A stretch of DNA of 29,034 bases from Candidatus Baldrarchaeum yapensis. Lineage in GTDB: Archaea; Asgardarchaeota; Baldrarchaeia; Baldrarchaeales; Baldrarchaeaceae. The translations under genes and the position numbers were made by a program. A model generated the notes under the pieces. The model was not told the DNA's origin and did not search any database. It saw nothing but the letters and a program-made list of their open reading frames with translations. The stretch spans positions 1 to 29,034 of the forward strand of contig JAEOSH010000022.1 in the NCBI GenBank assembly GCA_016840465.1, written 5' to 3'. Positions within the stretch are counted from its first letter, which is position 1, and the number at the start of each line of letters is the position of its first letter. Of this stretch, positions 1,334 through 27,065 are shown in pieces.

Positions 1334-2904
1334 AACTGAAACTTGCCGAGCGAATTTGGATCTCGGATAGGAGGAAGGTCGAGAGGCTGAAGAAACTGGT
1401 ATACGATCTAGCCCACTTCAGAAACTTGACGCTTATCTTCATAAGAGAGTACCATCGGAAGACGGGAAAGTGGATAACATCCGCATCGGTGCTATACTCC
1501 CTGTTTGCGGATCGCATGAACCGAAAGAGCGGTGAGGAGAAACGGAGAAAAGTGGAGGAAATAAAGAAAAACTTGGATGAGGGCTTGAAAGAGTGGTATC
1601 TGAAGATCTTGGAGCAGAAAAGGAAGATTGACAACAACTGGCTGGTTCAGCAGGTTCTAAGGCAGATCGAGAGTGACTTCAAAAGTTACTTCTCCTCGAT
1701 TAAAGAGTACCGCAAAAATCCGAAGAAGTTCTGTGGGGAACCGAAGCCTCCCAAACCGAAGAAGTTGCAGAACTTGCCGAGGTTCACAGTGGAGTTCAAC
1801 GCAAACGTCATGCGCCAGAACGGAAGGAAACTGTATCTTAGGCTCAGGGTTAAGGGGAACAGGTGCTTCTGTATCAAATTGTCCCGTAGCTTCAAGGTGA
1901 CATCGGCAAGACTCTGTTATTTTCTGGGATCGGTGTACGTGGATGTCATCCGTGAGGAGGAGTTTCCCGATGTCAAGCCCCTTGGAAACCACATCGCGGC
2001 GGTAGATCTAAACTTGGACAACTTCGTGGTTCTCGTGTCCACAAAACCCGCCGTTCCCTCGATAATAATTTCGGGTGGGGCGATCAAGGCTTTCAACCAA
2101 TGGTTCAACAAGGTAAAATCAAAACTTCAGAGCGAGGCTGACAGGATTCGGAATGAGATAGAGAAGTTCGATGAACCACCGGAAGAACTCGTAAAAAAGG
2201 AAAGAGAATTGCGTGCAAAAATAAGGATACTATGCGTTCACAGAAAGAAGTGGTTTGACACTCACTTTCACAGACTTACTAAATATCTCGCCTTGTTCCT
2301 CTACCGTACAGGTCACAAAACTCTGATTATTGGAAACGGTGCCCTTAACGCGAAAAGGGGATGCAACCTCGGTCATAAGATTGCGGAAAAGTTTGTTCAG
2401 ATCCCGTACCGTTCCTTCATCGAAAAACTGAGGTATAAATGTCAACTTCTCGGAATAGAGGTCAAAGAGGTTTCAGAGGAGAACACATCTAAAATAAACT
2501 GCCTTTGCGATTCCCCGGATGCGAGAAAGATGCTTTCCGGTCAGAGGATAAGAAGGGGGTTGTACCTCGCTTTCTTGAAAGGTAAAAAGGTTGTGTTGAA
2601 CGCCGACTGCAACGCCGCCTTCAACATTTTGAGGAGGGGAGCGTCGCTCCCCAACCTGACTTCTATTCTTGACCCGAAGGTTCTGATGTGGAAGTTGTGC
2701 AACCCCGTAAAGTTCAAATTTTTCAGGTTCATAGAACTCCTACAGCGTAACCCCCGAATCCCGCGAGGGATAGGGGGTAGTACAGCCCCGGAGGGGCAGG
2801 GTATAGCCCCCGCATCCCTGAAGTCTTCAGAAAATTTCATTCGACACTTTCTGAAACAAAAGGGATGTGCGGGGCTACCTGCGACACCACTAACTCCTTT
2901 ATGA
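1330..2904 (+). CDS. tnpB: TnpB RNA-guided endonuclease (IS607-type, 524 aa including an extension through the right end)
   Basis: RuvC-I AVDLNLDN (D226); LIIGNG at the canonical RuvC-II position; VSEENTSK; SGQRIRRGLY; RuvC-III NADCNAAFNIL. Directly downstream of tnpA. Confidence 0.92.
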   Translation: MKLKLAERIWISDRRKVERLKKLVYDLAHFRNLTLIFIREYHRKTGKWITSASVLYSLFADRMNRKSGEEKRRKVEEIKKNLDEGLKEWYLKILEQKRKIDNNWLVQQVLRQIESDFKSYFSSIKEYRKNPKKFCGEPKPPKPKKLQNLPRFTVEFNANVMRQNGRKLYLRLRVKGNRCFCIKLSRSFKVTSARLCYFLGSVYVDVIREEEFPDVKPLGNHIAAVDLNLDNFVVLVSTKPAVPSIIISGGAIKAFNQWFNKVKSKLQSEADRIRNEIEKFDEPPEELVKKERELRAKIRILCVHRKKWFDTHFHRLTKYLALFLYRTGHKTLIIGNGALNAKRGCNLGHKIAEKFVQIPYRSFIEKLRYKCQLLGIEVKEVSEENTSKINCLCDSPDARKMLSGQRIRRGLYLAFLKGKKVVLNADCNAAFNILRRGASLPNLTSILDPKVLMWKLCNPVKFKFFRFIELLQRNPRIPRGIGGSTAPEGQGIAPASLKSSENFIRHFLKQKGCAGLPATPLTPL

Positions 2905-2935
2905 CAGAACCTCGGCAACTGCAAGTCTGAATACT
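2750..2935 (+). ncRNA. Putative TnpB omega/reRNA scaffold at the IS right end, plus the flanking guide
   Basis: Hairpin 2750-2778 (atccc-GCGA-gggat inside accccc/gggggt); hairpin 2785-2797 (gcccc/ggggc); ~16-bp stem 2804-2819 with 2861-2877 enclosing ttcagaaa/tttctgaa (2826-2833/2848-2855). The position matches the known TnpB omegaRNA location. Boundaries are inferred. Confidence 0.6.
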
Positions 2936-2952
2936 ACTCCTTGGTGATGTGA

Positions 2953-4224
2953 GTGGAGAAGGAAATCCTTAAGGTGATAGAACAGAAGGAAAGAGAAGTG
3001 GCATCGCTGTGCTCCGAGCTGATAAAGAGAAAGAGTGAAAATCCGCCGGGTGATGTGAGCGAGGCGGCGTTCTTCGTCAGAGATCTGCTTAAAGAATGGG
3101 GGCTCGATGTAAAAACCGTGGAGCCGGAAAGGGGAAGAGTCAACGTGGTTGCAATCTTAAAAGGTCATGGAGAGAAGAAATTGTTGTTTAATGGGCATTT
3201 AGACGTTGTTCCTGCTGGAGACCCGAAAAACTGGAAGTACGACCCGTATGAGGGCAGAATATCAGGAGGGATTGTGTACGGCAGAGGGGCGTGCGACATG
3301 AAAGGCGCAATAGCGTCGATGCTGACAACCCTCTCCGTGATTCTCGAAAAGGACGTGAAACTTGGTGGTGACCTGATATTCCATTTCGTCTGTGATGAGG
3401 AAACGGGCGGCCAGTTCGGCACCGGATACCTCGCTAGGGAGGGATACGTTTCCGCCGACGGTTGCATCATAGGAGAGGGGTCCGGAAACAGCGTTCTCGG
3501 CTATACGCTGGTCGTTGCGGAGAGGGGCGTGATATGGGCCAAAATAAAGGCTAAAGGCAGAGCAGCACACGGATCGGTTCCCATGCTTGGAGACAACGCG
3601 ATACTGAAGCTTATGAGGGTCATAGACGTCATCAGGACACTCCCCGACATGGAGTTGAGAATAGACCCCGAGATAGAAAGGCTTGCAGAGAGTTCTATGG
3701 AGTACCTCGGCCCCTTCATGAGGGCGTACAAGATTGATCCCGAGGACTTCAAGAGGAATATGTTAAGGATGTCGGTGAACGTGGGAGTGGTGAGAGGGGG
3801 AACAAAGGTCAACGTGGTTCCCGAGTATGCCGAAGCCGAAATCGACGTGAGGGTTCCACCCTCTGTTTCGTTAGAAGAAGCGATAAACCTGCTTAGGGAC
3901 AGGATCGAGGGAACTGGAGTTCCGGGAGTGGAACTGGAGTTAATGGCGACATCGGAGCCCTCATATCAGGACGTGAGCCACCCGTTTGTCAACTTTGTGA
4001 GGAGGTGCGTTGAGGAGGTCACCGGGAGAAGCGTCCCGCTCATAATGATGCCTTGGTCGACGGACGCGCGCTACATAAGAAACCTAGGTATACCGACGGT
4101 AATGCTGGGTCCTCTGAACGAAAGTCCGCACATGGCGAACGAATATGTTCCGATAAGAGATTTGGTAATGTGCGCAAAGATGTATGCGCTGATAGCATTA
4201 AGATTTCTGGGGCATGAAGCTTAA
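2953..4224 (+). CDS. M20 family metallopeptidase/deacylase (ArgE/DapE-like)
   Basis: Motifs NGHLDVVP, YGRGACDMKG, DEETGG, IIGE, GRAAHGS, GGTKVNVVPE and HMANE. GGTGAT ribosome-binding site before the GTG. Confidence 0.92.
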   Translation: MEKEILKVIEQKEREVASLCSELIKRKSENPPGDVSEAAFFVRDLLKEWGLDVKTVEPERGRVNVVAILKGHGEKKLLFNGHLDVVPAGDPKNWKYDPYEGRISGGIVYGRGACDMKGAIASMLTTLSVILEKDVKLGGDLIFHFVCDEETGGQFGTGYLAREGYVSADGCIIGEGSGNSVLGYTLVVAERGVIWAKIKAKGRAAHGSVPMLGDNAILKLMRVIDVIRTLPDMELRIDPEIERLAESSMEYLGPFMRAYKIDPEDFKRNMLRMSVNVGVVRGGTKVNVVPEYAEAEIDVRVPPSVSLEEAINLLRDRIEGTGVPGVELELMATSEPSYQDVSHPFVNFVRRCVEEVTGRSVPLIMMPWSTDARYIRNLGIPTVMLGPLNESPHMANEYVPIRDLVMCAKMYALIALRFLGHEA

Positions 4225-4308
4225 CGCCATCATGGCTCCAATTTACTACACTTAAATGCCGCTCAGCGAAAAAATATAGTCTGAGAAAATAACCCTTCGT
4301 GGCCCAAA

Positions 4309-4764
4309 ATGACGTATGAGTACTGCCCATACTGCGGCACCCCCCTACCACCTGGTGCAATGTTTTGTCCCAAGTGCAATGCCTCGCTTATGGAGCCTCC
4401 AGAAGAGTTGGAAAGCATGACCGCTGGCGAAAAGATCTCAATTTCCTCATCCCGCGAAAAAGCAGTCACGGAAACTCCTAGAATCGTAAGAAAGAGGCCG
4501 ATGATTGCGGCAGCCCTCTCAGCTATCGTGCCCGGGCTTGGACATCTGTACGCCGGAAGGAAGAGGAGAGCGGCTTTAATCATGCTTCTGATGGTTCCAT
4601 CTTTCTTCGCAATATTGTTTTTGGTTTTCGCGATGAGCAAGTTCTTCGGAATGCTCCTCTTCCTATCATGGGTACTGGTGTGGGTATGGCAGGTGCGTGA
4701 CTCCTACGATCTGACAGAGCGTATGGCCACGCAGAGGCACATGCGAAGTGCCCCTCGTATGTGA
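4309..4764 (+). CDS. Zinc-ribbon + TM2-like membrane protein
   Basis: CPYCG...FCPKC ribbon, AAALSAIVPGLGHLYAG TM2-like motif, then two hydrophobic helices. Paralog at 10621. Confidence 0.8.
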   Translation: MTYEYCPYCGTPLPPGAMFCPKCNASLMEPPEELESMTAGEKISISSSREKAVTETPRIVRKRPMIAAALSAIVPGLGHLYAGRKRRAALIMLLMVPSFFAILFLVFAMSKFFGMLLFLSWVLVWVWQVRDSYDLTERMATQRHMRSAPRM

Positions 4765-4788
4765 GAGACCCCGATACGTGACGGTAAC

Positions 4789-4817
4789 TTTTATTTCCAC
4801 TCCCTGCAATATATTGC
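4789..4817 (+). promoter_or_regulatory. TATA-like element and 12-bp palindrome upstream of the C/D sRNA
   Basis: TTTTATTT at 4789-4796, about 25 nt before the sRNA 5' stem. Perfect palindrome GCAATATATTGC at 4806-4817. Confidence 0.45.
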
Positions 4818-4818
4818 T

Positions 4819-4880
4819 GTACCGATGATGAATGGGGACCTCTCGAATACTGATGAAGAGGGTCTACAGCGCTGAGGTAC
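4819..4880 (+). ncRNA. Box C/D methylation-guide sRNA
   Basis: Terminal stem GTACC (4819-23)/GGTAC (4876-80); C box ATGATGA 4825-31; D' TCGA 4843-46 (alternatively CTGA 4850-53); C' TGATGA 4851-56; D CTGA 4872-75. Length 62 nt, intergenic. Confidence 0.85.
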
Positions 4881-5003
4881 CCAATACCCTCAAAAGCCGC
4901 TCCATGGCCACCTCATCTTTGCCGCCCTTTTACCACAACCTTGGAATCGAACAGTATAGCAATTGTTAAATTGAGAAAGGGTGGGAATATTCCGGGGATC
5001 GGG

Positions 5004-5288
5004 TTGAGTGTAGGTCCCGAAACTGTGCGCCACATCGCAAAACTTGCCCGCGTGAAGGTCGAAGAGGAAGAGGTTGCGAAGTTCTCCGAACAGTTCTCAA
5101 GAATACTCGAGTTCTTCAACGAACTTGACAAGATAGACGTCTCAAACGTCGAGCCAATGTACCACGTGATCCCCCTCGAAAACGTGTTGCGGGAGGATAA
5201 ACCCTCCCAGCCGCTCGACGTTGAGGATGCGCTCAAAAACGCCCCCGAGAGGAAGGACAAGTACTTCAAAGCCCCGCCAATAATCTGA
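5004..5288 (+). CDS. gatC: Asp-tRNA(Asn) amidotransferase subunit C
   Basis: VRHIAKLARV...ILEFFNELDKID...NVLRED...ALKNAPE...YFKAP. TTG at 5004 is preferred over the ORF-track start at 4941. The stop overlaps the gatA start (TGATG). Confidence 0.92.
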   Translation: MSVGPETVRHIAKLARVKVEEEEVAKFSEQFSRILEFFNELDKIDVSNVEPMYHVIPLENVLREDKPSQPLDVEDALKNAPERKDKYFKAPPII

Positions 5289-6784
5289 TGCAAGTGGTTG
5301 CAATGAAAATTTATGAGATGACCGCGTTAGAACTGCGGGATGCGATAATCCGTGGGGAGTACAAGGTCGAAGAAGTGGTATCAGCATTCTTAGAGAGGAT
5401 AGAAAAGGACCCGCTCAACTGCTACATAACCGTCGTTAAGGAGCAGGCACTGGAGGAGGCCCGCAAAAAGGACAAGGAGATAAAGGAGTACACCCCGGAT
5501 AAGGTTCCGCCCCTCTTTGGAGTACCGATCGCCGTCAAAGACAACATCTCAACTAAGGGTATAAGGACCACGTGTGCATCCAGAATGCTCGAAAACTACG
5601 TGCCCGTCTTCGATGCGACCGTTGTTGAATTACTTAAACAGGCGGGAGCAATAATCGTCGGTAAAACGAATATGGACGAATTCGCGATGGGAAGCACTAA
5701 CGAAACCAGTTACTTTGGCCCGGTCCTTAACCCCTGGGACAGAAGTAGGGTCCCAGGAGGATCCTCGGGAGGAAGTGCGGCAACTGTCGCCGCGCGCCAA
5801 GTACCCTTGGCACTTGGAACCGACACCGGAGGCTCGATAAGGGCGCCAGCAAGTTACTGTGGAATCGTTGGTCTGAAGCCCACTTACGGGATGGTAAGTC
5901 GATACGGCCTGATAGCCTACGCCGATAGCCTAGAACAAATAGGACCCATGGCAAGGACTGTTGAAGATTTGGCTCTGTTATTTGACGTTATAGAGAGATA
6001 CGATCCCCGAGACTCCACCTCGGTTCCGCCGAAGTTCCGCCCCTCGACTGGGAGGCATCTACAGGAGTTGAGAACCATATTTCCGGAGGAGATAAGTGGG
6101 CTGAGAATGGCGCTGATATCGGAACTCATGAGCGAGGGCATCGAATCGGAGGTCTCGCACAGCATAATGAGAAGCGTTGAGATATTCGAGAAATACGATA
6201 TCATGGTCGACGAGATATCGATCCCCGAGCTGAGGTACGCGCTCCCCGCGTACTACATAATTGCAATGGCGGAGGCAAGTTCAAACCTCGCAAGATACGA
6301 TGGTATAAGGTACGGATTCTCCTCGGGTGCCCCCGGGAAGTTCTACGACGTGATCGCCGAAAACAGAAGGCTGGGATTTGGGGAGGAGGTAAGGAGGAGG
6401 ATCCTTCTGGGAACGTTTGTCCTCTCGGCCGGGTATTACGGACAATATTATCTGAAGGCGCTGAAGGTGCGGAGACTGATAAAAGAGGCCCTCGACAGAG
6501 CGTTCAAATCATTCGATATTCTCATTTCACCAACTATGCCCATTCTCCCTCCGAAACTGGGTGAGCGGATAAAGGATCCCCTCACGCTCTACCTCATGGA
6601 TCTATGTACCGTCCCCGCAAACCTCGCCGGGGTTCCCGCATTGTCCATTCCATGCGCATTCGTTAATGGGTTACCCGTTGGGATGCAACTCATGGCCCCG
6701 CCCTTCCACGAAGACGTTCTCTTCAAGGCCGCCTACATCTTCCAAAAGGAGACCCGCCTCTATGAAATGAGTCCTCCCGTGTAG
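5288..6784 (+). CDS. gatA: Amidotransferase subunit A (amidase signature family)
   Basis: AVKDNI (catalytic Lys), GKTNMDEFAMGS, PGGSSGGSAA, GTDTGGSIRAPAS (nucleophilic Ser), SSNLARYDGIRYG, EEVRRRILLG. Confidence 0.96.
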   Translation: MQVVAMKIYEMTALELRDAIIRGEYKVEEVVSAFLERIEKDPLNCYITVVKEQALEEARKKDKEIKEYTPDKVPPLFGVPIAVKDNISTKGIRTTCASRMLENYVPVFDATVVELLKQAGAIIVGKTNMDEFAMGSTNETSYFGPVLNPWDRSRVPGGSSGGSAATVAARQVPLALGTDTGGSIRAPASYCGIVGLKPTYGMVSRYGLIAYADSLEQIGPMARTVEDLALLFDVIERYDPRDSTSVPPKFRPSTGRHLQELRTIFPEEISGLRMALISELMSEGIESEVSHSIMRSVEIFEKYDIMVDEISIPELRYALPAYYIIAMAEASSNLARYDGIRYGFSSGAPGKFYDVIAENRRLGFGEEVRRRILLGTFVLSAGYYGQYYLKALKVRRLIKEALDRAFKSFDILISPTMPILPPKLGERIKDPLTLYLMDLCTVPANLAGVPALSIPCAFVNGLPVGMQLMAPPFHEDVLFKAAYIFQKETRLYEMSPPV

Positions 6785-6794
6785 GTGAGGGGGT

Positions 6795-9644
6795 ATGGGT
6801 AAGGAGCAACCCGAAGTGAGGATAGGATTAGAGATTCACTGTCAGATGTCGAACCTGAAGACGAAGCTCTTCTGCAGTTGCCCTTCCGATTACCGGGATA
6901 AGGATCCAAACACAGTGACGTGTCCCGTATGTTTGGGACTCCCCGGTGCGCTCCCCGTAGTCAATAAAGAGGCAATAAAGATGGCGATAAAGACGGCCCT
7001 CGTACTCAACTCCCAAATCTCGAGGAAGACCTACTTCTACAGGAAACACTACTTCTACCCCGACCTCCCCAAGGGCTACCAGATATCCCAATACGACAGG
7101 GCGGGCGCGGTCCCCTTCGCCGTTGGAGGCTACCTTGACATAGAGGTAAACGGGCGCAGGAAGAGGATAAGGATTCGGAGGATACAGATAGAGGAGGACC
7201 CCGCAAAACTCACATATAGTGGTGCGTCCATCGATGTCGCTCAATTCACAATGATAGACTATAACAGGTCCGGAATTCCGCTTCTGGAAATAGTAACGGA
7301 GCCCGACCTCTCCTCCGCGGAGGAAACCGTGGAATTCCTAAAGAAGTTGCGGATGCTTCTGGAACATATCGGTGTATTTCAAGGAGATCTGGAGGGCGTG
7401 ATGAGGGTAGACGTGAACCTCTCGATAGGGTCCGGCGCCAGGGTCGAGATAAAGAACCTATCCTCCCTGAAGGATGTTGAGAGGGCGATTTCATTCGAGA
7501 TTCTGAGGCAGACGAGACTCATGCGTGAAGGGATAGAGGTAAGAAGGGAAACGCTCCACTGGGACGACAAGGCACGTAGAACCTATACTCTGAGAGAGAA
7601 GGAGGAGGAGCAGGACTACAGGTATTTCCCCGATCCCAACCTCCCTCCCCTCATGATAACGGATGAAATGATAGAGGAAGTCAAGAAGGAACTCCCGCAT
7701 CTGCCGGAAATGCTCGTCGAGAAGTATGTCAGCGAACTCGGAATCCCGGAGAATATGGCGAGAGTGATAGTGCAGGACGTAACGCTCTCCAGATTCTTTG
7801 ATGAATGTGTGGAATCCGGTGGAAACCCGGCAGAGGTTGCTCGCTGGCTCCTAAAACTCCCGAAGGAGGACAAGGAAACCCTCCTCTCAAAGTGGGACAC
7901 ATCCGGGTTCGCCAAGGTCGTCGACGTACTAAAGAACTATGAGGTTCCGGACGACATAGGCGTCAACCTGATTCATGATTACCTCTCGGGGAAGATAACG
8001 CTAGAGGATGTGGAGGAGGGAGGAAGGAAGATCGCAGAGTCACGTAAATATCTTAAGGAGAAGATAATCGAAATCCTATCCTCAATAGAAGTTCCAAAGA
8101 AGGTAATTGAGAGGATAGGCGGAGATGAGGAGAAGTTAAGGGGTTTCGTCATAGGGCAGGTGAAAAAGCTTCTTTCCAAAACGTATGGCAGATTCATAGA
8201 CTCCAAACTCGTCGCCGAACTGGTATCGGAGAACTTTGGTGTTGTAAGGGAAAGAGTAAAGCTGGAGAAGAAAGAAGAGGTCACCCCCACCGTCACAGTT
8301 AGGGAAAGGATCGTAGAGGGTCTGGAGGGTCTTCGGAGGACCCACTTCACGGATGAGGTCACTTCTGATCTCGAGGGAGAAGAGGTAGTGGTGTACGGCT
8401 GGGTCCAAAGAATAAGCCGCCTCGGAAAACTCACCTTCCTGGTGCTCAGAGACGGAAGAGGAATAATCCAAGTGAAGATCTCCAGAAAGGAGTGCCCCGA
8501 GGAGGTCGTCAAGAAACTGAAATACATAACGCCGGAGTCGGTGGTAGCGGTCAAGGGCACCGTTAGGGTCGACAAGAGGGCGCCCACCGGAGTCGAAATA
8601 GTTCCCAGCGAGATGAGGGTTCTCGCAATTAGTGAGAAACTCCCATACACCCTAGAGCAGGCCCGTGAGGTCGACCTTTCCACACGGCTCGACTACAGGT
8701 ACATCGACATAAGGAGGGAGAGCGTCAGGGCGATCTTCAGAATAAGGTCCACGGTGCTCCACAGCATCAGTAACTTCTTCCACGAGCACGGCTTCGTCGA
8801 GATCAACACCCCCAAGATAATTGCAACAGCGGCAGAGGGAGGCGCTGAACTATTCTCCCTTCTCTTCTACGGAAGAGAAGCGTACCTCAGCCAAAGTCCT
8901 CAACTTTACAAGCAAATGGCAACTCTCGGGTTTGAGCGCGTCTTCGAGATAGGACCATGCTACAGAGCGGAAAAGTTCCACACGACAAAGCACCTAGTAG
9001 AGTTCTGGGCCCTCGATGTCGAGGTGGCATTCGCAACATACCATGACCTCATGAAGATCCTCGAGGACCTGATGGTGCACGTGTACAGTGATGTTATAGA
9101 GAAGCACCCGAAGGAGTTGGAGATACTGGGTGTGGAGCTGGAGGTCCCGAAGCCCCCGTTCCCCAAGATAACCTACGATGAGGCGCTCAAAATAGCGGCG
9201 AGCAAAGGATATGAGGTAGAGTGGGGCGACGACGTACGTGGTGAGGCCTTCAGGGCGGTGTCAAACGACTTTGCAGAACGTGGACACGAGTTCTTCTTCA
9301 TAATAGACTTCCCAGCGTCCGCAAGAGCATTTTACTACAAGCCACATGAGAAGGATGAACGACTCACTAAGAGTTTTGATCTAGTGAACAGCGTCAAGGG
9401 AGGAATAGAACTCTCAAGTGGAGGGGAGAGAATAAACGACATAGACCTCCTAGTAAAGAGACTTAGGGAGCGGGGTCTCGACCCCGAGAAGTACACGTGG
9501 TACCTTGATATGTTCAAATACGGGGTCCCACCACACGGAGGATTCGGTCTAGGAATAGAAAGACTCCTGCAGGCGATGCTTCGCCTCGACAACATAATGG
9601 AGGCAGTGTTCGTACCGAGAACGCCTCAGAGACTCACACCATAA
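6795..9644 (+). CDS. gatB-aspS: GatB::aspartyl-tRNA synthetase fusion (GatB aa 1-481, 31-aa linker, archaeal-type AspRS aa 513-949)
   Basis: GatB: IGLEIHCQ, FCSC/CPVC, RKHYFYPDLPKGYQISQY, EEDPAK, DYNRSGIPLLEIVTEPD, RVEIKN, DYRYFPDP, FVIGQVKK tail. AspRS: RTHF...GWV, LRDG, EGGAELF, QSPQLYKQ, GPCYRAEK, SSGGER, PPHGGFGLGIERL, PRTPQRLTP. One uninterrupted 949-codon frame. Confidence 0.95.
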   Translation: MGKEQPEVRIGLEIHCQMSNLKTKLFCSCPSDYRDKDPNTVTCPVCLGLPGALPVVNKEAIKMAIKTALVLNSQISRKTYFYRKHYFYPDLPKGYQISQYDRAGAVPFAVGGYLDIEVNGRRKRIRIRRIQIEEDPAKLTYSGASIDVAQFTMIDYNRSGIPLLEIVTEPDLSSAEETVEFLKKLRMLLEHIGVFQGDLEGVMRVDVNLSIGSGARVEIKNLSSLKDVERAISFEILRQTRLMREGIEVRRETLHWDDKARRTYTLREKEEEQDYRYFPDPNLPPLMITDEMIEEVKKELPHLPEMLVEKYVSELGIPENMARVIVQDVTLSRFFDECVESGGNPAEVARWLLKLPKEDKETLLSKWDTSGFAKVVDVLKNYEVPDDIGVNLIHDYLSGKITLEDVEEGGRKIAESRKYLKEKIIEILSSIEVPKKVIERIGGDEEKLRGFVIGQVKKLLSKTYGRFIDSKLVAELVSENFGVVRERVKLEKKEEVTPTVTVRERIVEGLEGLRRTHFTDEVTSDLEGEEVVVYGWVQRISRLGKLTFLVLRDGRGIIQVKISRKECPEEVVKKLKYITPESVVAVKGTVRVDKRAPTGVEIVPSEMRVLAISEKLPYTLEQAREVDLSTRLDYRYIDIRRESVRAIFRIRSTVLHSISNFFHEHGFVEINTPKIIATAAEGGAELFSLLFYGREAYLSQSPQLYKQMATLGFERVFEIGPCYRAEKFHTTKHLVEFWALDVEVAFATYHDLMKILEDLMVHVYSDVIEKHPKELEILGVELEVPKPPFPKITYDEALKIAASKGYEVEWGDDVRGEAFRAVSNDFAERGHEFFFIIDFPASARAFYYKPHEKDERLTKSFDLVNSVKGGIELSSGGERINDIDLLVKRLRERGLDPEKYTWYLDMFKYGVPPHGGFGLGIERLLQAMLRLDNIMEAVFVPRTPQRLTP

Positions 9645-9670
9645 CTCAATCCCAGAGGGGATTTCTCTGG

Positions 9671-9733
9671 GGAAATCCGCATAAGGCCCCATCTCATCAC
9701 AGGTCAGCCGAAACCTCCTTCCGTCATCTTTCC
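9671..9733 (-). ncRNA. Candidate box C/D guide sRNA, convergent with the aspS 3' end
   Basis: Minus strand reads GGA-AAGATGA(C)-cggaaggaggtttcgg-CTGA(D')-cct-GTGATGA(C')-gatggggccttatg-CGGA(D)-TTTCC. The D'/C' pair is canonical; the C and D boxes are variant but k-turn compatible. A TATA-like TATTTATAA lies at 9793-9785. Confidence 0.65.
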
Positions 9734-10540: not shown

Positions 10541-10620
10541 CATAACCACGTATTAACGGCTATATTTTATAATCTCAAGAGGAAAAGTTAGACTATGAGT
10601 AGAGTGCACAGGTGAAAAAT

Positions 10621-11058
10621 ATGAGTACCAAGTACTGCCCTTATTGCGGAGCACAGTTACCACCAGGCGCATCTTTTTGCCCAAAGTGTGGCGCCAGTGT
10701 CCAAGTTGCACCTGCAACGCCCACAACCCAGCAACCAGCGACCCCAGTGACGACAACTCCAGTCTCACCGCCCCCCACTCGTCCACCGACTACTGTCGTG
10801 GTTGGGGCTAAGAGTCCGGGGGTTGCTGCAATCCTATCGTTGCTGATCCCAGGCCTCGGGCAGATATACGTCGGAAGAGTGGGAAGGGGCTTATTGATAT
10901 TGTTCATAGTGATGCCACTTACATTCGTGATAGCGTCTCTCACGCTCATATTTGTGTTCCTACCGCTCATCATATGGATCTGGCAAATCTTCGACGCATA
11001 TAATCTTGCGAAAAAGTACAACGACTACCTGTTAAGCATAGGCCAACCTCCTTGGTGA
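10621..11058 (+). CDS. Zinc-ribbon + Pro/Thr linker + TM2-like membrane protein
   Basis: CPYCG...FCPKCG, PATPTTQQPATPVTTTPVSPPPTRPP linker, KSPGVAAILSLLIPGLGQIYVG, WIWQIFDAY. ATG at 10621 is preferred (ORF track starts at GTG 10612). Confidence 0.85.
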   Translation: MSTKYCPYCGAQLPPGASFCPKCGASVQVAPATPTTQQPATPVTTTPVSPPPTRPPTTVVVGAKSPGVAAILSLLIPGLGQIYVGRVGRGLLILFIVMPLTFVIASLTLIFVFLPLIIWIWQIFDAYNLAKKYNDYLLSIGQPPW

Positions 11059-11311
11059 ATAAGGCAAAATACCTTAACGTTCCTTTTTCTTTTTTATCAA
11101 TGGGAGTATGGAAGTATCCACGCATCCACTCAAGAAACTTTACGAAATCCATAAACGTAAATTTTCGCCATAATACGTATATCCTGGGATCTGATCTTAG
11201 TATGCTACACTCCTACTTGTATCATTTCAATTTTCAATTATGCTTTCTTCAAACATTCCATTTGAAGAAGTTCTTGTTAGCTTTGACAAAAGGAAACCTT
11301 TTGGTGGGCTC

Positions 11312-12493
11312 CTATAACTTCGAAATTAGGAATTCGAGAGCAGTTAGTGCGTAGACTTTCGATGCTATCATCACGTCCTTTGTGCAAATGTGTTCATATG
11401 GTGTGTGAGCAACAGCGCAATCTCCGGGCCCAAAGATAACTACCGGAATTTTTGCCTTAAGAAAGAGGGTTTCCGCATCTGTCCACGCGGTAAATGGCAT
11501 GTGCTCGACATCTTTTCCGCAAACCGTACGAAATGCTCTTGAAATTGCGGACACTATTTTCTCATGCTCGTTAACCGAAAACGCCTCCCCATAGTTCGAA
11601 GTCTCCACGTGATAACCCAATATTACGCCTTTCCTCCTCAAATTTTCGAGGATCACCCTAGCCTCCCTCTTAACATCCTCTTCCTTGACCCCGCTCTTGA
11701 GGTTCAGGTTTAACTCCAAACGGCAGGAAAGAGGAACTACTACCGACCGCGTCCCCCCCACAAACCTATTGATATTCATTGATAAAACCTCCCCCTCCTT
11801 TACAATCCTAGACTCCTTAAACATGCTGAGAAACTCTATCGCCCCCTCCACCGCATTTACTCCTCTCTGGGGGAAACTCCCGTGCGCGGCCTTTCCGAAG
11901 ACCATTACTGTGAGATCCACATACCCCAGTTGTGAGGTGCAGATGCGTAAAGAGGTGGGCTCACCGACTATTGCAGCATCCGCAAGAATTCCCTTCTCGA
12001 CGAGGTGTTGTGTACCCCTCCCCTGTTCCTCCTCATCTACAACAAATGCCAGAATAACTCTCCCGCCAATCTGATTCTCAAACGGTAGTAAATTCTTAAA
12101 AGCTAATAGCATCGCGGTAAGCCCACCCTTCATATCCACAGCCCCCAATCCGTAAATGTAATCTCCGCATACCACCGCCTTAAACGGTGGAGTATTCCAG
12201 TCTTCCGGGGCAACAGTGTCGAGATGGCCGTTCAGCATAAGGACTCGTCTTCCCTTCCCTATTTCGGCTATAAGATTGTACCTGTTCGGAAGAACCTCCT
12301 CAAGCCTTACAGATACTCCCCACCCTTCTAATAACTCTCTTATGTAGAACGCAATTTCGGCCTCGTATCCCGATACGCTCGGAATCTCTATTAGCTTCGA
12401 TAGAAGATCCACTACCTCTTCCCTGCTAACTCTCATGGAGTCCAGTAGTGCCCGCCTCGTATCGATACCGCACATGTGCGTAAGTAATAGCAC
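11312..12493 (-). CDS. M20 family metallopeptidase/deacetylase (ArgE/DapE/LysK-like)
   Basis: NGHLDTV, YGLGAVDMKGG, VDEE, IVGEPT, GKAAHGS and AHTPYE. The true start may be ATG 12436 (MRVSREEVVDLL). Confidence 0.92.
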   Translation of the reverse strand: MLLLTHMCGIDTRRALLDSMRVSREEVVDLLSKLIEIPSVSGYEAEIAFYIRELLEGWGVSVRLEEVLPNRYNLIAEIGKGRRVLMLNGHLDTVAPEDWNTPPFKAVVCGDYIYGLGAVDMKGGLTAMLLAFKNLLPFENQIGGRVILAFVVDEEEQGRGTQHLVEKGILADAAIVGEPTSLRICTSQLGYVDLTVMVFGKAAHGSFPQRGVNAVEGAIEFLSMFKESRIVKEGEVLSMNINRFVGGTRSVVVPLSCRLELNLNLKSGVKEEDVKREARVILENLRRKGVILGYHVETSNYGEAFSVNEHEKIVSAISRAFRTVCGKDVEHMPFTAWTDAETLFLKAKIPVVIFGPGDCAVAHTPYEHICTKDVMIASKVYALTALEFLISKL

Positions 12494-23636: not shown

Positions 23637-25214
23637 ATGAAAGAATCTTCGATCATGGAGGAACTTAAGAGCCTCACCGCAAGGCTCAAAATGGAAATAG
23701 GGAAGCAGATTCTAACCTCTTACCCCGTTATACCCCCTTACGCCTATGTCGTAATATATAATGACCCTGCGACCGGAAGAAAGTTCTACGAGGTCGTAGA
23801 ACCCCCGCTCAATGAAGACGAAAACCAGAAACTCAGGCTCATCTCAAATATACTGATGAACGAAATAGATGTGGAGTTCTCCGAACTCACAACAAAGGAG
23901 GAGAGGGCAAGCTACCTCAAGAAGAAGGTCCAGGAGATAATAAAGAAGTACAGGATCCCCGTCTCCGAAGAATCCCTCAAAAAGATACTGTACTACGTCG
24001 AGAGGGACTTCGCCGGCCTCGGAAAAATAGAACCCCTCATGTGCGACGACGAAATAGAAGACATCAGCTGTGACGGTCCCGGAATCCCCGTGTACGTCTG
24101 GCACCGAAGATACGAGTCCATGCCCACAAACGTAATATTCGAATCCGCAGAGGAGTTGGACGCCTTCGTCATAAAACTCGCCCAGCGTTGCGGAAAGTAC
24201 ATCTCGATAGCGCAACCCCTCCTCGACGCATCCCTACCCGACGGATCCCGTGTCCAGATAACCTTCCAGAAGGAGGTAACCCTCAGGGGTAGCACCTTCA
24301 CAATAAGAAAGTTCAGGAGAGACCCCTTCACGATCGTCGACCTGATAAAACTGGGCACCCTTTCCAGCGAAATGGCCGCATACTACTGGCTGTGCATAGA
24401 GAACAGAATGTCAATACTGGTGGCGGGAGGAGTCGCCGCCGGAAAGACAACACTCCTCAATTGCCTCGCGATGTTCATACCCCCGGACTTTAAGATAGTC
24501 TCAATTGAGGACACCCCCGAACTCAACCTCCCAACCGAGCACTGGATACAGTCGGTCGCAAGGCCCGGTTACGGGGAGAAAACACCAACCGGAGAGAGAA
24601 GAGGAGAAATATCAATGTTCGAACTCCTGAAGGCAGCCGTGAGGCAGAGACCCGATTACATAATCGTGGGAGAGATACGTGGAGAAGAGGCATACGTCAT
24701 GTTCCAAGCAATGGCAACCGGGCACCTCGGTATGGCGACAATCCACGCCGAGGACTACTATGCGGTTATAAACAGGCTACAAAGCCGCCCCATGAACATA
24801 CCTAAGAGCTTACTGGTGACTCTGGATCTAATCGCAATTCAGAGAAAGGTGCGCACAAAAGATGGACGCATGGCCCGTAAAAACATAAAGATACATGAAA
24901 TAGTCGGCCTCGACCAAACCAGCGATGAACTCCTCCAGAACGTGGTTTATGAATGGGACGCCATCGAAGACGAATTCAAGTACACCGGACGAAGTTACAA
25001 ACTCGAAGCAATTATGAAGACTCGCGGAATGAGTGAAACCGAAGTATTCGATGAACTTGAAAGGAGAAGGACCGTCCTCGAGTGGATGGTTGCTAAAAAC
25101 ATAAGAAGATACGTAGACGTCGCAAGCATCATCAGAAAGTACTACGCGGATCCCGACAGGGTCTACATGACCGCCGTCCGGGAACTCGGTAGCGCGCCCG
25201 GAGGAAAATCCTAA
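23637..25214 (+). CDS. Type IV pilus/archaellum-family assembly ATPase (VirB11/ArlI/PilB-like)
   Basis: IEDISCDG, LLDASLPDGSR, FTIRKF, GGVAAGKTT, IEDTPEL, RQRPDYIIVGEIRG, MATGH, TIHA. Confidence 0.95.
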   Translation: MKESSIMEELKSLTARLKMEIGKQILTSYPVIPPYAYVVIYNDPATGRKFYEVVEPPLNEDENQKLRLISNILMNEIDVEFSELTTKEERASYLKKKVQEIIKKYRIPVSEESLKKILYYVERDFAGLGKIEPLMCDDEIEDISCDGPGIPVYVWHRRYESMPTNVIFESAEELDAFVIKLAQRCGKYISIAQPLLDASLPDGSRVQITFQKEVTLRGSTFTIRKFRRDPFTIVDLIKLGTLSSEMAAYYWLCIENRMSILVAGGVAAGKTTLLNCLAMFIPPDFKIVSIEDTPELNLPTEHWIQSVARPGYGEKTPTGERRGEISMFELLKAAVRQRPDYIIVGEIRGEEAYVMFQAMATGHLGMATIHAEDYYAVINRLQSRPMNIPKSLLVTLDLIAIQRKVRTKDGRMARKNIKIHEIVGLDQTSDELLQNVVYEWDAIEDEFKYTGRSYKLEAIMKTRGMSETEVFDELERRRTVLEWMVAKNIRRYVDVASIIRKYYADPDRVYMTAVRELGSAPGGKS

Positions 25215-26068
25215 TGCTTGAAAAACTGATGACCCTCAGCTATCTCTGGATAGGAAGAAGACTGGAAAAGAAGTTCAATGAGAACAGTTGGCTAACAAGA
25301 ATGCTCGAAAGAGCCGCCATAAGAATAAGCCCCGCAACGTACGCAGGCACCGCAATCCTCGTAAGCCTAATAACGTTACTGGGCGCTGCAGTACCCTTAT
25401 CCTTGATACTCCTCCTAGTGTTCAATTTAGGAATACTTTCCCTTCTACCTCTGTTGTTCTGGGTCCCGATACCTCTAGGGTTTCTCGCATACCCCTTCTT
25501 TAGGCAGGCGGGACGCAAGGAAAAAATAGATGGGGCACTGCCCTTCGCCGCCGGGTACATGTCAGTACTCGCAAGCGTCGGAATACCCCCTGACAAACTC
25601 TTTGAATCTCTAGCAAGGCAAAACTTAGGAGAAGTATCGGAAGAGGCGAAGATGATCGTCAGGGATATGTACTTCTTAGGGCTGGACTTCCTGTCCGCCA
25701 TCAAGAGGGCCGCCGACAGAACACCCTCCAGCACCTTCAGAGATTTCCTCGACGGAATAAGAGTAACACTGCTGAGCGGAGGGTCCCTCGCACGATACCT
25801 CGAGGAGCAAACCGTGAGCCTAATGAAACTCAGAGAGGAAAAGGAGAGGGAGTTCATAAAATCCCTGGGAATATTCGGGGAAATGTACGTAGTGCTGGTC
25901 GTTCTAGCACCCCTGCTGTTCATAGTGCTCCTCATATTCCTCGGATCATCCGCCGGAATCCCAATACCCCTCCCCGTGTTGCTGATGCTGATAGCCTACT
26001 TCCTAATTCCCCTCGCCGGAATAATCGTCATAACCCTGCTCGAAATGTCAATGCCGAAGGGTGAATGA
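25214..26068 (+). CDS. Type IV pilus membrane platform protein (TadC/ArlJ/T2SSF-like) 1
   Basis: KIDGALPFAAGYM...G, RAADRTPSSTFRDFLDG...GGSL..YL, plus TM helices. TAATG overlap with the ATPase. Confidence 0.92.
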   Translation: MLEKLMTLSYLWIGRRLEKKFNENSWLTRMLERAAIRISPATYAGTAILVSLITLLGAAVPLSLILLLVFNLGILSLLPLLFWVPIPLGFLAYPFFRQAGRKEKIDGALPFAAGYMSVLASVGIPPDKLFESLARQNLGEVSEEAKMIVRDMYFLGLDFLSAIKRAADRTPSSTFRDFLDGIRVTLLSGGSLARYLEEQTVSLMKLREEKEREFIKSLGIFGEMYVVLVVLAPLLFIVLLIFLGSSAGIPIPLPVLLMLIAYFLIPLAGIIVITLLEMSMPKGE

Positions 26069-27065
26069 AATGCCCCTCGCGAGACTCTTCACCAAATCGG
26101 AAAAGGAGAAAATATGGGTCCTCTCACTAGTAATATCCATCGCGGTCTTCACCGGCATATGCATGCACTCGGCCGCACCCCAAAACGTATTGTCCGCACT
26201 GCAAGAGTCCGGAATGTCAATCCAATACTTGCTTAGGAGTCCTGATAGCTCCATCGCCCAGAAATTCCTAAAAGGACTGCAAGATATGACCCTCGCCCTA
26301 CTCGTATCACTACTGGCAATGCTGACACCCCTCGCAATAATGTACACCATGGAAGACCGGTGGATCGACGGAGTGGACGAGAAAATCGCAGCCCTGCTAA
26401 GGGACCTATCTGACAGCATGTCCGCCGGAATATCAATATCACAAGCCCTAATAATGACCTCCAAGGGTCAAGGATTCGGAATCCTCAACGAACCCCTCAG
26501 AAAACTCGCTGTAAGAGTATCATGGGGCGTACCGTTCACAGAAGCAATAAGGGACTTCGCAAACTCCCTCGGCACACCGCTCTCCAAACGTCTGGAAGGA
26601 ATAATCATAGAAGCTTATAGATGCGGCGGAAACGTCGAGGAAATATTCTCAACCGCCGCAGAACACATAAGCAAACTGTGGGAACTCAAAAGAACAAGAA
26701 GAGGAGAAGTCCGCCCCTTCATGTTCACAATCTACATAGCCTTCTTCGTCTTCCTAATAATAACACTAATATTCGCAAAAATCCTCTTCCCCATCCTCAG
26801 CCAAATGAGCTCCCTCGCCGCCATGGGAGCAGGAGGGGGCACCGCTGGAGCCACGCTAACCGCGATATCAGAGGCGGAAGTCAAATTCGCAAACATTATC
26901 CTCTTCCACGCCGTGATACTAGAAGGACTGGTCGGAGGACTCGTAATAGGAAAAACCATACGCGGTCGTATCACCAGCGGCTTCCTCCACGCACTGATAA
27001 TGTTAATAATAGGAGTAGTATTCTACATATTGATGTTCGTGGCTCAGCTCCAGTTCGTGTGGTGA
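26061..27065 (+). CDS. Type IV pilus membrane platform protein (TadC/ArlJ/T2SSF-like) 2
   Basis: LLRDLSDSMSAGISISQAL, FGILNEPL, SWGVPF, AYRCGGNVEE, VIGKTIRG..SG.LHAL. Confidence 0.92.
   Translation: MNEMPLARLFTKSEKEKIWVLSLVISIAVFTGICMHSAAPQNVLSALQESGMSIQYLLRSPDSSIAQKFLKGLQDMTLALLVSLLAMLTPLAIMYTMEDRWIDGVDEKIAALLRDLSDSMSAGISISQALIMTSKGQGFGILNEPLRKLAVRVSWGVPFTEAIRDFANSLGTPLSKRLEGIIIEAYRCGGNVEEIFSTAAEHISKLWELKRTRRGEVRPFMFTIYIAFFVFLIITLIFAKILFPILSQMSSLAAMGAGGGTAGATLTAISEAEVKFANIILFHAVILEGLVGGLVIGKTIRGRITSGFLHALIMLIIGVVFYILMFVAQLQFVW

Follow-up and report, generated by a model that had tools for sequence, protein, structure and literature searches.

Transamidosomes are a textbook case of channelling, by which the genetic code is shielded from a deliberately mischarged tRNA. 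All those which have been solved are, to our knowledge, non-covalent and need tRNA for their assembly. We will describe here a gene in which two of their components are found in a single chain. It lies in a stretch of 29,034 nucleotides (nt) from the archaeon Candidatus Baldrarchaeum yapensis (GenBank assembly GCA_016840465.1, contig JAEOSH010000022.1, positions 1 to 29,034 of the forward strand); this whole stretch is called the window throughout. The gene, gatB::aspS, joins GatB, which acts as kinase and transamidase in the amidotransferase GatCAB, and an aspartyl-tRNA synthetase (AspRS) in one open frame. We consider it quite probable that it represents a covalent asparagine (Asn) transamidosome, with a complete GatB tethered to a complete archaeal-type AspRS.

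The closest described systems are bacterial. The pathway and the complex of the Asn-transamidosome are known from Thermus thermophilus (PMC9976931). This species and Deinococcus radiodurans have two synthetases, a discriminating AspRS1 and a non-discriminating AspRS2 which is dedicated to Asn synthesis (PMC4206432). The GlnRS of D. radiodurans carries at its C-terminus a YqeY/GatB-tail domain (PMC1865053; NF011291).

Proteins which join GatB and AspRS are already found in databases. With a bacterial fusion of 1112 amino acids (aa) as query we found many proteins from cultured Bacteroidota which NCBI names 'bifunctional amidotransferase subunit GatB/aspartate--tRNA ligase AspS'. The archaeal fused proteins are also public, labelled either GatB only or AspRS only; such single-function labels can mislead pathway reconstruction in archaeal metagenome-assembled genomes. 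Among the NCBIfam 20.0 models which match the window protein there is none for a GatB-AspRS fusion. Literature searches under several names gave no paper on any such fusion, most subscription journals being outside their coverage. The novelty which the initial annotation had considered is therefore partial: no paper was found, but the architecture has a name in bacteria and its archaeal members have been deposited. The window gene is an archaeal version, of independent origin, of a domain arrangement which databases list for bacteria.

The fused gene and its operon

The features of the gene are the following. Nucleotides are numbered along the window and residues along the fused chain of 949 aa.

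6795..9644, + strand: gatB::aspS fusion gene, 949 codons and a TAA stop (open reading frame (ORF), Pfam and NCBIfam)
6819..7676, + strand: GatB catalytic (cradle) domain, aa 9-294 (Pfam GatB_N, E 2e-102)
7677..8237, + strand: GatB helical and YqeY-like tail domains, aa 295-481 (Pfam GatB_Yqey and structure model)
8238..8330, + strand: linker, aa 482-512 (low model confidence, low conservation)
8331..8624, + strand: AspRS N-terminal strand and anticodon-binding domain with an oligonucleotide-binding (OB) fold, aa 513-610 (Pfam tRNA_anti-codon, aa 531-610)
8679..9623, + strand: AspRS class II catalytic core, aa 629-943 (Pfam tRNA-synt_2, E 3e-87)

Both halves are matched end to end by NCBIfam equivalog models (hidden Markov models, HMMs). 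In the first half the GatB model NF004012 covers aa 5-480 with 495 bits (cut-off 338), and TIGR00133 gives 467 bits (cut-off 315). In the second half the aspartate--tRNA(Asn) ligase model NF003483 covers aa 515-949 with 526 bits (cut-off 353), and the archaeal-type AspRS model TIGR00458 gives 476 bits (cut-off 368). The two models of asparaginyl-tRNA synthetase (AsnRS) score less, 342 and 321 bits, both under their cut-offs. Chance co-occurrence is far excluded, because two complete enzymes, each with E near 1e-150, share one frame. In Pfam the match to GatB_Yqey (aa 333-479) barely passes, with 27.1 bits for a cut-off of 27; the GAD insertion domain PF02938 was not detected in the window protein.

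The initial annotation had described this 949-codon frame as a complete GatB followed by a complete archaeal-type AspRS, and the models bear it out. Its boundaries are exact: the GatB tail ends with F481 at nt 8237, the linker has 31 aa, and codon 513 (nt 8331) reads CTT, which is not a start codon. From nt 8100 to 8460 the only in-frame ATG, GTG or TTG codons are at 8160, 8388, 8391 and 8442. The first one is a GTG inside GatB, the next two are GTG codons in the first strand of the OB fold and the last one is also inside this fold. There is no separate AspRS start at the boundary of the two enzymes.

A model of the fused chain was obtained with AlphaFold2 from an alignment of 29 archaeal fusions. 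Both halves fold well, while aa 490-515 have a predicted local distance difference test (pLDDT) below 50; the predicted template modelling score (pTM) of the whole chain is 0.48. The GatB tail is all-helical, with pLDDT 66-89. In this model the fused protein is best described as two bodies on a flexible tether. Among the archaeal fusions the spacer between the Pfam domain boundaries has 38-60 residues, 37% of them E, K or R, and a column identity of 0.31. With about 30 disordered residues the tether could in principle reach over roughly 100 Å, more than one arm of the tRNA L-shape.

The same 29 sequences were used in order to judge residue conservation. GatB residues E13, H15, E133-D135, E165, D206, N208, E218 and K220 are invariant in all 29. 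This is also the case for AspRS residues Q700-S-P-Q703, K706, R724, H733, E736, D741, E743, E872, G876-G877, R879 and R923. The AspRS half has a mean column identity of 0.66, versus 0.58 in the GatB half. Judged from these residues, both halves look functional as catalysts.

The fusion gene is the last one in a tightly packed operon, gatC-gatA-gatB::aspS:

4941..5288, + strand: gatC; mechanical ORF from TTG 4941, with TTG 5004 (94 aa) as the likely true start
5288..6784, + strand: gatA, glutaminase subunit (TIGR00132, 612 bits, cut-off 481)
9651..9671, + strand: inverted repeat CCCAGAG ... CTCTGGG followed by a pyrimidine-rich stretch, 7 nt past the stop codon, read from the sequence

The product of gatC is recognized by Pfam GatC (E 2e-24) and by TIGR00135 (105 bits, cut-off 47), whose match begins at residue 27 of the ORF. 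Both genes are thus above their equivalog cut-offs and stand directly 5' of the fusion, as had been annotated from the start. The stop of gatC and the start of gatA overlap in TGATG. Between gatA and gatB there is a purine-rich spacer of 10 nt which contains GGTGAGGGGG ahead of the gatB ATG. In GatA the residues of the amidase signature are apparently intact by eye: K84, GGSSGGS 157-163 and S183 in DTGGSIR. The inverted repeat may mark the end of the operon, as a candidate read from the sequence; a terminator scan made no call at this position.

The fusion in other genomes

The 90%-identity cluster of the window protein contains five different sequences, each of 949 aa, from NCBI, JGI, ENA and Logan assemblies, with contigs of up to 51.5 kb. 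A protein from a JGI metagenome contig (P0003) is 70% identical and is also encoded in the order gatC-gatA-gatB::aspS; its linker has five more residues and a nearly unrelated sequence, and the frame is kept. A whole-length search gave about 30 more archaeal 90% clusters with 880-956 aa and 40-44% identity, all of them with both halves. A stop and restart in the linker of close relatives, which the initial annotation had named as evidence against the fusion, was looked for: the relatives stay in frame in spite of their different linkers.

In an exhaustive HMMER search against 1.84 billion cluster representatives the top-ranked matches are fused proteins. They belong to an archaeal group and to three bacterial types with 955, 1090 (Aminipila) and 1112 aa. 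The 955-aa type has 135 members in one cluster, and its whole-length matches bear the NCBI names Ruminococcus, Oscillospiraceae or Hominimerdicola. The 1090-aa and 1112-aa types have an AspRS of bacterial type. Members of the archaeal clusters carry the names Candidatus Bathyarchaeota, which is the name on the nearest relative of the window protein, Asgardarchaeia, Thermoprotei, Aigarchaeota and Candidatus Caldiarchaeum subterraneum. One further match, P0022 (Orobanche), was rejected as a GatB fusion: it is a tandem AspRS. Another representative, P0137, has 817 aa and a different composition: a complete GatB (GatB_N and GatB_Yqey) is followed by the asparaginase/glutaminase pair PF00710 and PF17763, so that GatB and an ammonia-producing domain of the GatD kind are found in one chain.

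Quick maximum-likelihood trees were calculated separately for each half. The AspRS tree omits P0011, P0017, P0162 and rows with fewer than 330 aligned residues; two of its rows (L010_sameorder and L015_sameorder), which fall outside the fused clade, are wrong-strand translations with stops and were disregarded. The GatB tree omits P0011, P0162 and sequences shorter than 400 aa. In each tree the archaeal fusions come together as a single clade, with the same inner topology; its support in the Shimodaira-Hasegawa-like approximate likelihood ratio test (SH-aLRT) is 98 (AspRS half) and 95 (GatB half). In the AspRS tree this clade also contains P0025, a 363-aa fragment which may come from a fused or an unfused protein. 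The three bacterial types group with different unfused relatives, away from the archaeal clade, in both trees. Each tree requires at least four changes between the fused and unfused states. Since the archaeal fusions are one clade and the three bacterial types branch elsewhere, the fusion has arisen independently at least four times. P0020, P0023 and P0024, which are the closest AspRS relatives without a fusion, are not adjacent to gatB, and no precursor operon was identified among them.

The archaeal clade has more than one gene order. The window lineage has gatC-gatA-gatB::aspS, while in another sub-clade (L023-L025) the order is gatB::aspS-gatA-gatC and the next genes are a divergent AsnC/Lrp-type regulator and glutamine synthetase (glnA). 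The presence of these two genes beside the operon hints at a nitrogen-linked regulation. An Asgard contig (L018, JGI 3300005099) has directly after gatB::aspS, in positions 3567-5387, a GatA::GatC fusion of 606 aa with Amidase in aa 25-470 and GatC in aa 530-599. Because these two genes adjoin, the whole Asn-transamidosome would be encoded there in two polypeptides.

The distribution of the fusion is patchy. It is absent from the 40 nearest genomes and from the four relatives of the same order, and it is found in two of 400 sampled genomes of the phylum, being absent from the other 398. A search of genome contigs for related loci gave no additional fused locus. Genome G307, which is 66% complete, has a fused gene (contig C36, positions 2187-4934, L026) identical to P0009, and an AsnRS; a free AspRS was not found in it. 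Its six congeners (G301-G306) lack the fusion and have AspRS, AsnRS and an AsnA-like gene. The fused gene of G307 could be due to horizontal transfer or to a mis-binned contig, and the patchy distribution as a whole hints at one or the other, neither of which is proved. In the window the operon has a G+C content of 0.51-0.53, and 0.62-0.68 at third codon positions, which is 1-2 standard deviations over the genome means. The neighbouring genes have similar values; a horizontal-transfer island was considered and discarded, since the flanking genes match the operon and give no signal.

Other features of the window are less directly related to the operon. On both of its flanks (2953-4764 and 10612-12493) there are pairs of distant paralogs: M20 peptidase copies which are 28% identical, and copies of a zinc-ribbon plus DUF6677 membrane protein which are 34% identical. 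In positions 723-2904 a small HTH_17 ORF precedes a TnpB/Cas12f-like ORF of 524 aa (OrfB_IS605 and a Cas12f1-like TNB domain), the remnant of a mobile element some 2 kb upstream of the operon. In positions 23637-27065 there is an assembly ATPase of the type IV pilus/archaellum type (T2SSE) followed by two genes for T2SSF membrane proteins; a DUF7266 ORF is found further downstream.

The host genome and the role of the fused protein

The host assembly has 2.27 Mb in 100 contigs and is 96% complete. The fused protein is its sole GatB, and genes for GatD and GatE are adjacent to each other on another contig. It is established that archaea divide the two indirect routes: GatDE serves glutamine (Gln) and GatCAB serves Asn. 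The initial annotation had relied on this division, and the gene set of the host, a single (fused) GatB together with GatDE, is consistent with it. As GatB of this type is the only one there and GatDE is present, the host GatCAB should serve the Asn route only. In the host genome no AsnRS was found above cut-off: the best match of the AsnRS models is the fused AspRS, at a sub-threshold score. AsnA is absent from the assembly at its 96% completeness, and for the AsnB family there are just two short PP-loop matches, in ORFs of about 290 aa. Because none of the three was found, tRNA-dependent synthesis is probably the sole source of asparagine, and the fused route is probably the only path of this host to both asparagine and Asn-tRNA.

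A second AspRS, not fused, is present on contig C67 of the host. It is 47% identical to the fused one and groups with the AspRS of relatives of the same order. These relatives are without GatB and have AsnRS-like and AsnA-like genes. Among the relatives which do have GatB, two (G040, contig C36, and G011, contig C47; loci L044 and L048) show an AsnRS-type gene about 1.6 kb upstream of gatB in the same strand; L048 is an AsnRS by HMM, L044 has the AsnRS-type motif only. Since such a gene is found near gatB, the direct and indirect Asn routes would stand side by side in these two genomes.

The residues which read the anticodon were located by alignment with the AspRS of Thermococcus kodakarensis (Tko; structures 3nel and 1b8a), with an offset of 512: Q538 corresponds to Tko 26 and P597 (nt 8583-8585) to Tko 85. 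Pro85 is reportedly required for the recognition of tRNA(Asn), according to work by Feng and colleagues in 2003 and 2005 in which W26 and K85 are said to be the positions concerned. P597 is aligned to K85 of 3nel/1b8a and is invariant in the 29 fusions, as is the L1 loop R595-A596-P597-x-G599-x-E601. Among 40 relatives, proline at Tko 85 is found in all 15 AspRS from GatB-bearing genomes, versus 9 of 24 sequences from genomes which lack GatB. At Tko 26 the fused clade has Gln or Glu versus His in classical non-discriminating enzymes. Position 26 was tried as a discriminator and rejected, being too variable among the AspRS of GatB-bearing genomes. As the free AspRS of the host has His26 and also Pro85, these positions cannot show which copy charges which tRNA.

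We propose that GatA and GatC, from the same operon, would assemble with GatB::AspRS as a covalent Asn-transamidosome. The class II interface of AspRS would probably form a dimer, (GatC-GatA-GatB::AspRS)2, with 1:1 stoichiometry. The AspRS half would read the GUU anticodon of tRNA(Asn) and produce Asp-tRNA(Asn), whose acceptor end would swing over to the tethered GatB site. There the aspartate would be phosphorylated and then amidated with ammonia derived from GatA, to give Asn-tRNA(Asn); the mischarged intermediate would be handed over without release. The fusion arose repeatedly and independently, which argues that the tether itself is advantageous. A real and selected fusion which acts as a hard-wired Asn-transamidosome was the core of the initial annotation, and all the computational tests that we have run support it. 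Protection of the mischarged intermediate at high temperature had been proposed as a possible benefit of the tether. The proteome composition of the host (IVYWREL fraction 0.454) gives a crude estimate near 90 °C, and its tRNAs have a G+C content of 0.71 versus 0.46 in the genome; these values indicate a hyperthermophile, which agrees with the proposal. However, fusions of independent origin are frequent among gut Oscillospiraceae and marine Bacteroidota. Since such mesophiles evolved the same fusion, protection from heat is not its general reason; in this host it may add value.

Several observations weigh against a covalent Asn-transamidosome. No gene for a tRNA(Asn) with anticodon GUU was found in the assembly, either by ARAGORN with and without introns, by Rfam RF00005 (40 hits) or by a custom scan for anticodon stem-loops; the parts encoded are AspRS, GatA, GatB and GatC, in an assembly of the size and completeness given above. 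The free AspRS shows the pattern of classical non-discriminating enzymes, His26/Pro85, which leaves the need for a second, fused one unexplained. The GatB tail (aa 300-479) is poorly conserved among the fusions (mean column identity 0.41), and in most of the other archaeal ones GatB_Yqey goes undetected by Pfam. The rule for positions 26 and 85 has as its sole support here the correlation of proline with GatB, which is not phylogenetically independent: the genomes are related, and the counts do not amount to a statistical test. Finally, we infer the enzymatic activities and the channelling rather than observe them. Contig C67 also has, in positions 32447-32531 of the - strand, an intron-containing gene which ARAGORN calls 'tRNA-Stop(tta)'; its anticodon depends on the placement of a 12-nt intron and it is probably a mis-call.

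The presence of two AspRS genes may have a different meaning: the fused enzyme might aspartylate tRNA(Asn) only, and the free one would serve tRNA(Asp). We regard this as possible, although rather unlikely. Both genes have been kept, the free one with its same-order relatives and the fused one in a separate clade. The L1 loop of the fused enzyme, D-K-R-A-P-T-G, is nearly identical to the D-K/E-R-A-P-T-G of several AsnRS from relatives, enzymes which read only GUU. Five sequences from relatives have the AsnRS motif; an HMM confirms three of them as AsnRS, of which two have the loop motif. In the active site the fused enzyme has QSPQLYKQ with Lys, at a position where the three confirmed AsnRS have Ala or Leu. 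The Gln or Glu at Tko 26, unlike the classical His, would also agree with a dedicated enzyme, although this position is not diagnostic given its wide variation. There is a precedent in the GluRS1/GluRS2 pairs (PMC9976931), the analogue being GluRS2 of Helicobacter pylori, which is specific for tRNA(Gln). On the other hand, a dedicated specificity is read here from sequence comparison, and G307 has the fused gene and no free AspRS that we could find, so that its fused enzyme, if this is true, would have to charge tRNA(Asp) as well; the weight of this objection is limited by the incompleteness of that genome and the possible mis-binning of its contig. If the specificity were real, the window archaeon and its fused-clade relatives would have a closed single-particle asparagine machine in which Asp-tRNA(Asn) is never free, and nature would have an AspRS equivalent of the GluRS2 that charges only tRNA(Gln).

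It is improbable that the single translated chain works as two proteins, through cleavage of the linker or an internal start, with the fusion only ensuring co-expression. In the model the linker is disordered and exposed, a possible target for proteases, and the GTG codons at nt 8388 and 8391 are in frame. However, both codons fall inside the first strand of the OB fold, and a start there would give a truncated domain. The fusion has been kept among proteins which are only 40% identical and has at least four separate origins, and adjacency in an operon already gives co-expression by itself.

We find it very unlikely that the AspRS half is a catalytically silent module which recruits tRNA(Asn), with all aspartylation left to the free AspRS. 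The non-discriminating pattern of the free enzyme would allow it, and appended tRNA-binding domains have a precedent in the YqeY tail of Deinococcus GlnRS. Motif 2 also has unusual changes: RAE has become RAQ in most of the fused clade, and RH has become KH in the window lineage. Against this, the motif 2 Arg, QSPQ, K706, D741, E743, E872, R879 and the motif 3 Arg are invariant in all 29 fusions aligned, the equivalog score is well over its cut-off, and the AspRS half is better conserved than the GatB half. As for a sequencing or assembly error which erased a stop between adjacent gatB and aspS genes, it is effectively refuted: the window comes from an assembly in many contigs, but we found no evidence for an error, the 949-aa product recurs in several independent assemblies, and diverged relatives with other linker lengths are all fused in frame.

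Comparison with known systems

Natural single-chain versions with at least four origins offer a system in which the channelling gain of a tether, the functional stoichiometry and the existence of a tRNA(Asn)-dedicated AspRS can be probed. The archaeal clade is the cleanest case: in the host genome of the window there is no free GatB, GatDE is present and no other route to asparagine was found. The host protein should also be thermostable and suited to structural work.

Two known proteins are partial analogues. The GlnRS of D. radiodurans is also a synthetase covalently linked to a GatB-derived module. However it has only the tail domain and belongs to the direct pathway, whereas in the window a whole catalytic GatB is joined to a synthetase of the indirect pathway. 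The AspRS-GatC fusion NF009460 (PRK12820) is, like the window protein, a naturally occurring covalent junction of AspRS with a subunit of GatCAB. In that case GatC is found at the C-terminus of an AspRS of bacterial type, and the window protein scores 154 bits versus a cut-off of 1379.

The bacterial fusions share more features. In Bacteroidota GatB/AspS has about 1110 aa and the same domain order, GatB, linker and AspRS, with GatB_N, GatB_Yqey, OB fold and class II core in one chain. Its AspRS is of bacterial type with the GAD insertion (PF02938) that the window AspRS lacks. Its GatB falls among bacterial GatBs, far from the archaeal clade: it has an independent origin and mesophilic hosts, in which GatCAB may also serve Gln. 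The fusion of Oscillospiraceae and Ruminococcus (about 955 aa, for example P0012) is closer in form: its AspRS is of archaeal/eukaryal type, its length is the same and its genes are in the order gatC-gatA-gatB::aspS, as in the window. NCBI annotates it as GatB only. However it is just 34-37% identical to the window protein, its halves branch with different unfused relatives and its hosts are gut mesophiles.

The two-AspRS systems of Thermus and Deinococcus resemble the host in their pair of AspRS genes, of which one is associated with GatCAB in the tRNA-dependent synthesis of asparagine. The host differs from them in that both copies are archaeal-type and have Pro85, and the copy associated with GatCAB is covalently fused. 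The stoichiometry reported for the Thermus complex also differs from the 1:1 ratio which a fusion imposes. This complex (ND-AspRS2, the non-discriminating enzyme, with GatCAB and tRNA(Asn); PDB 3KFU) shares with the window system all four protein parts and the archaeal type of AspRS, and its chains are sequence relatives of both halves (E 1e-90 for GatB and 1e-79 for AspRS2). In Thermus synthetase and amidotransferase are separate and are joined through the tRNA; in the window GatB and AspRS are one chain.

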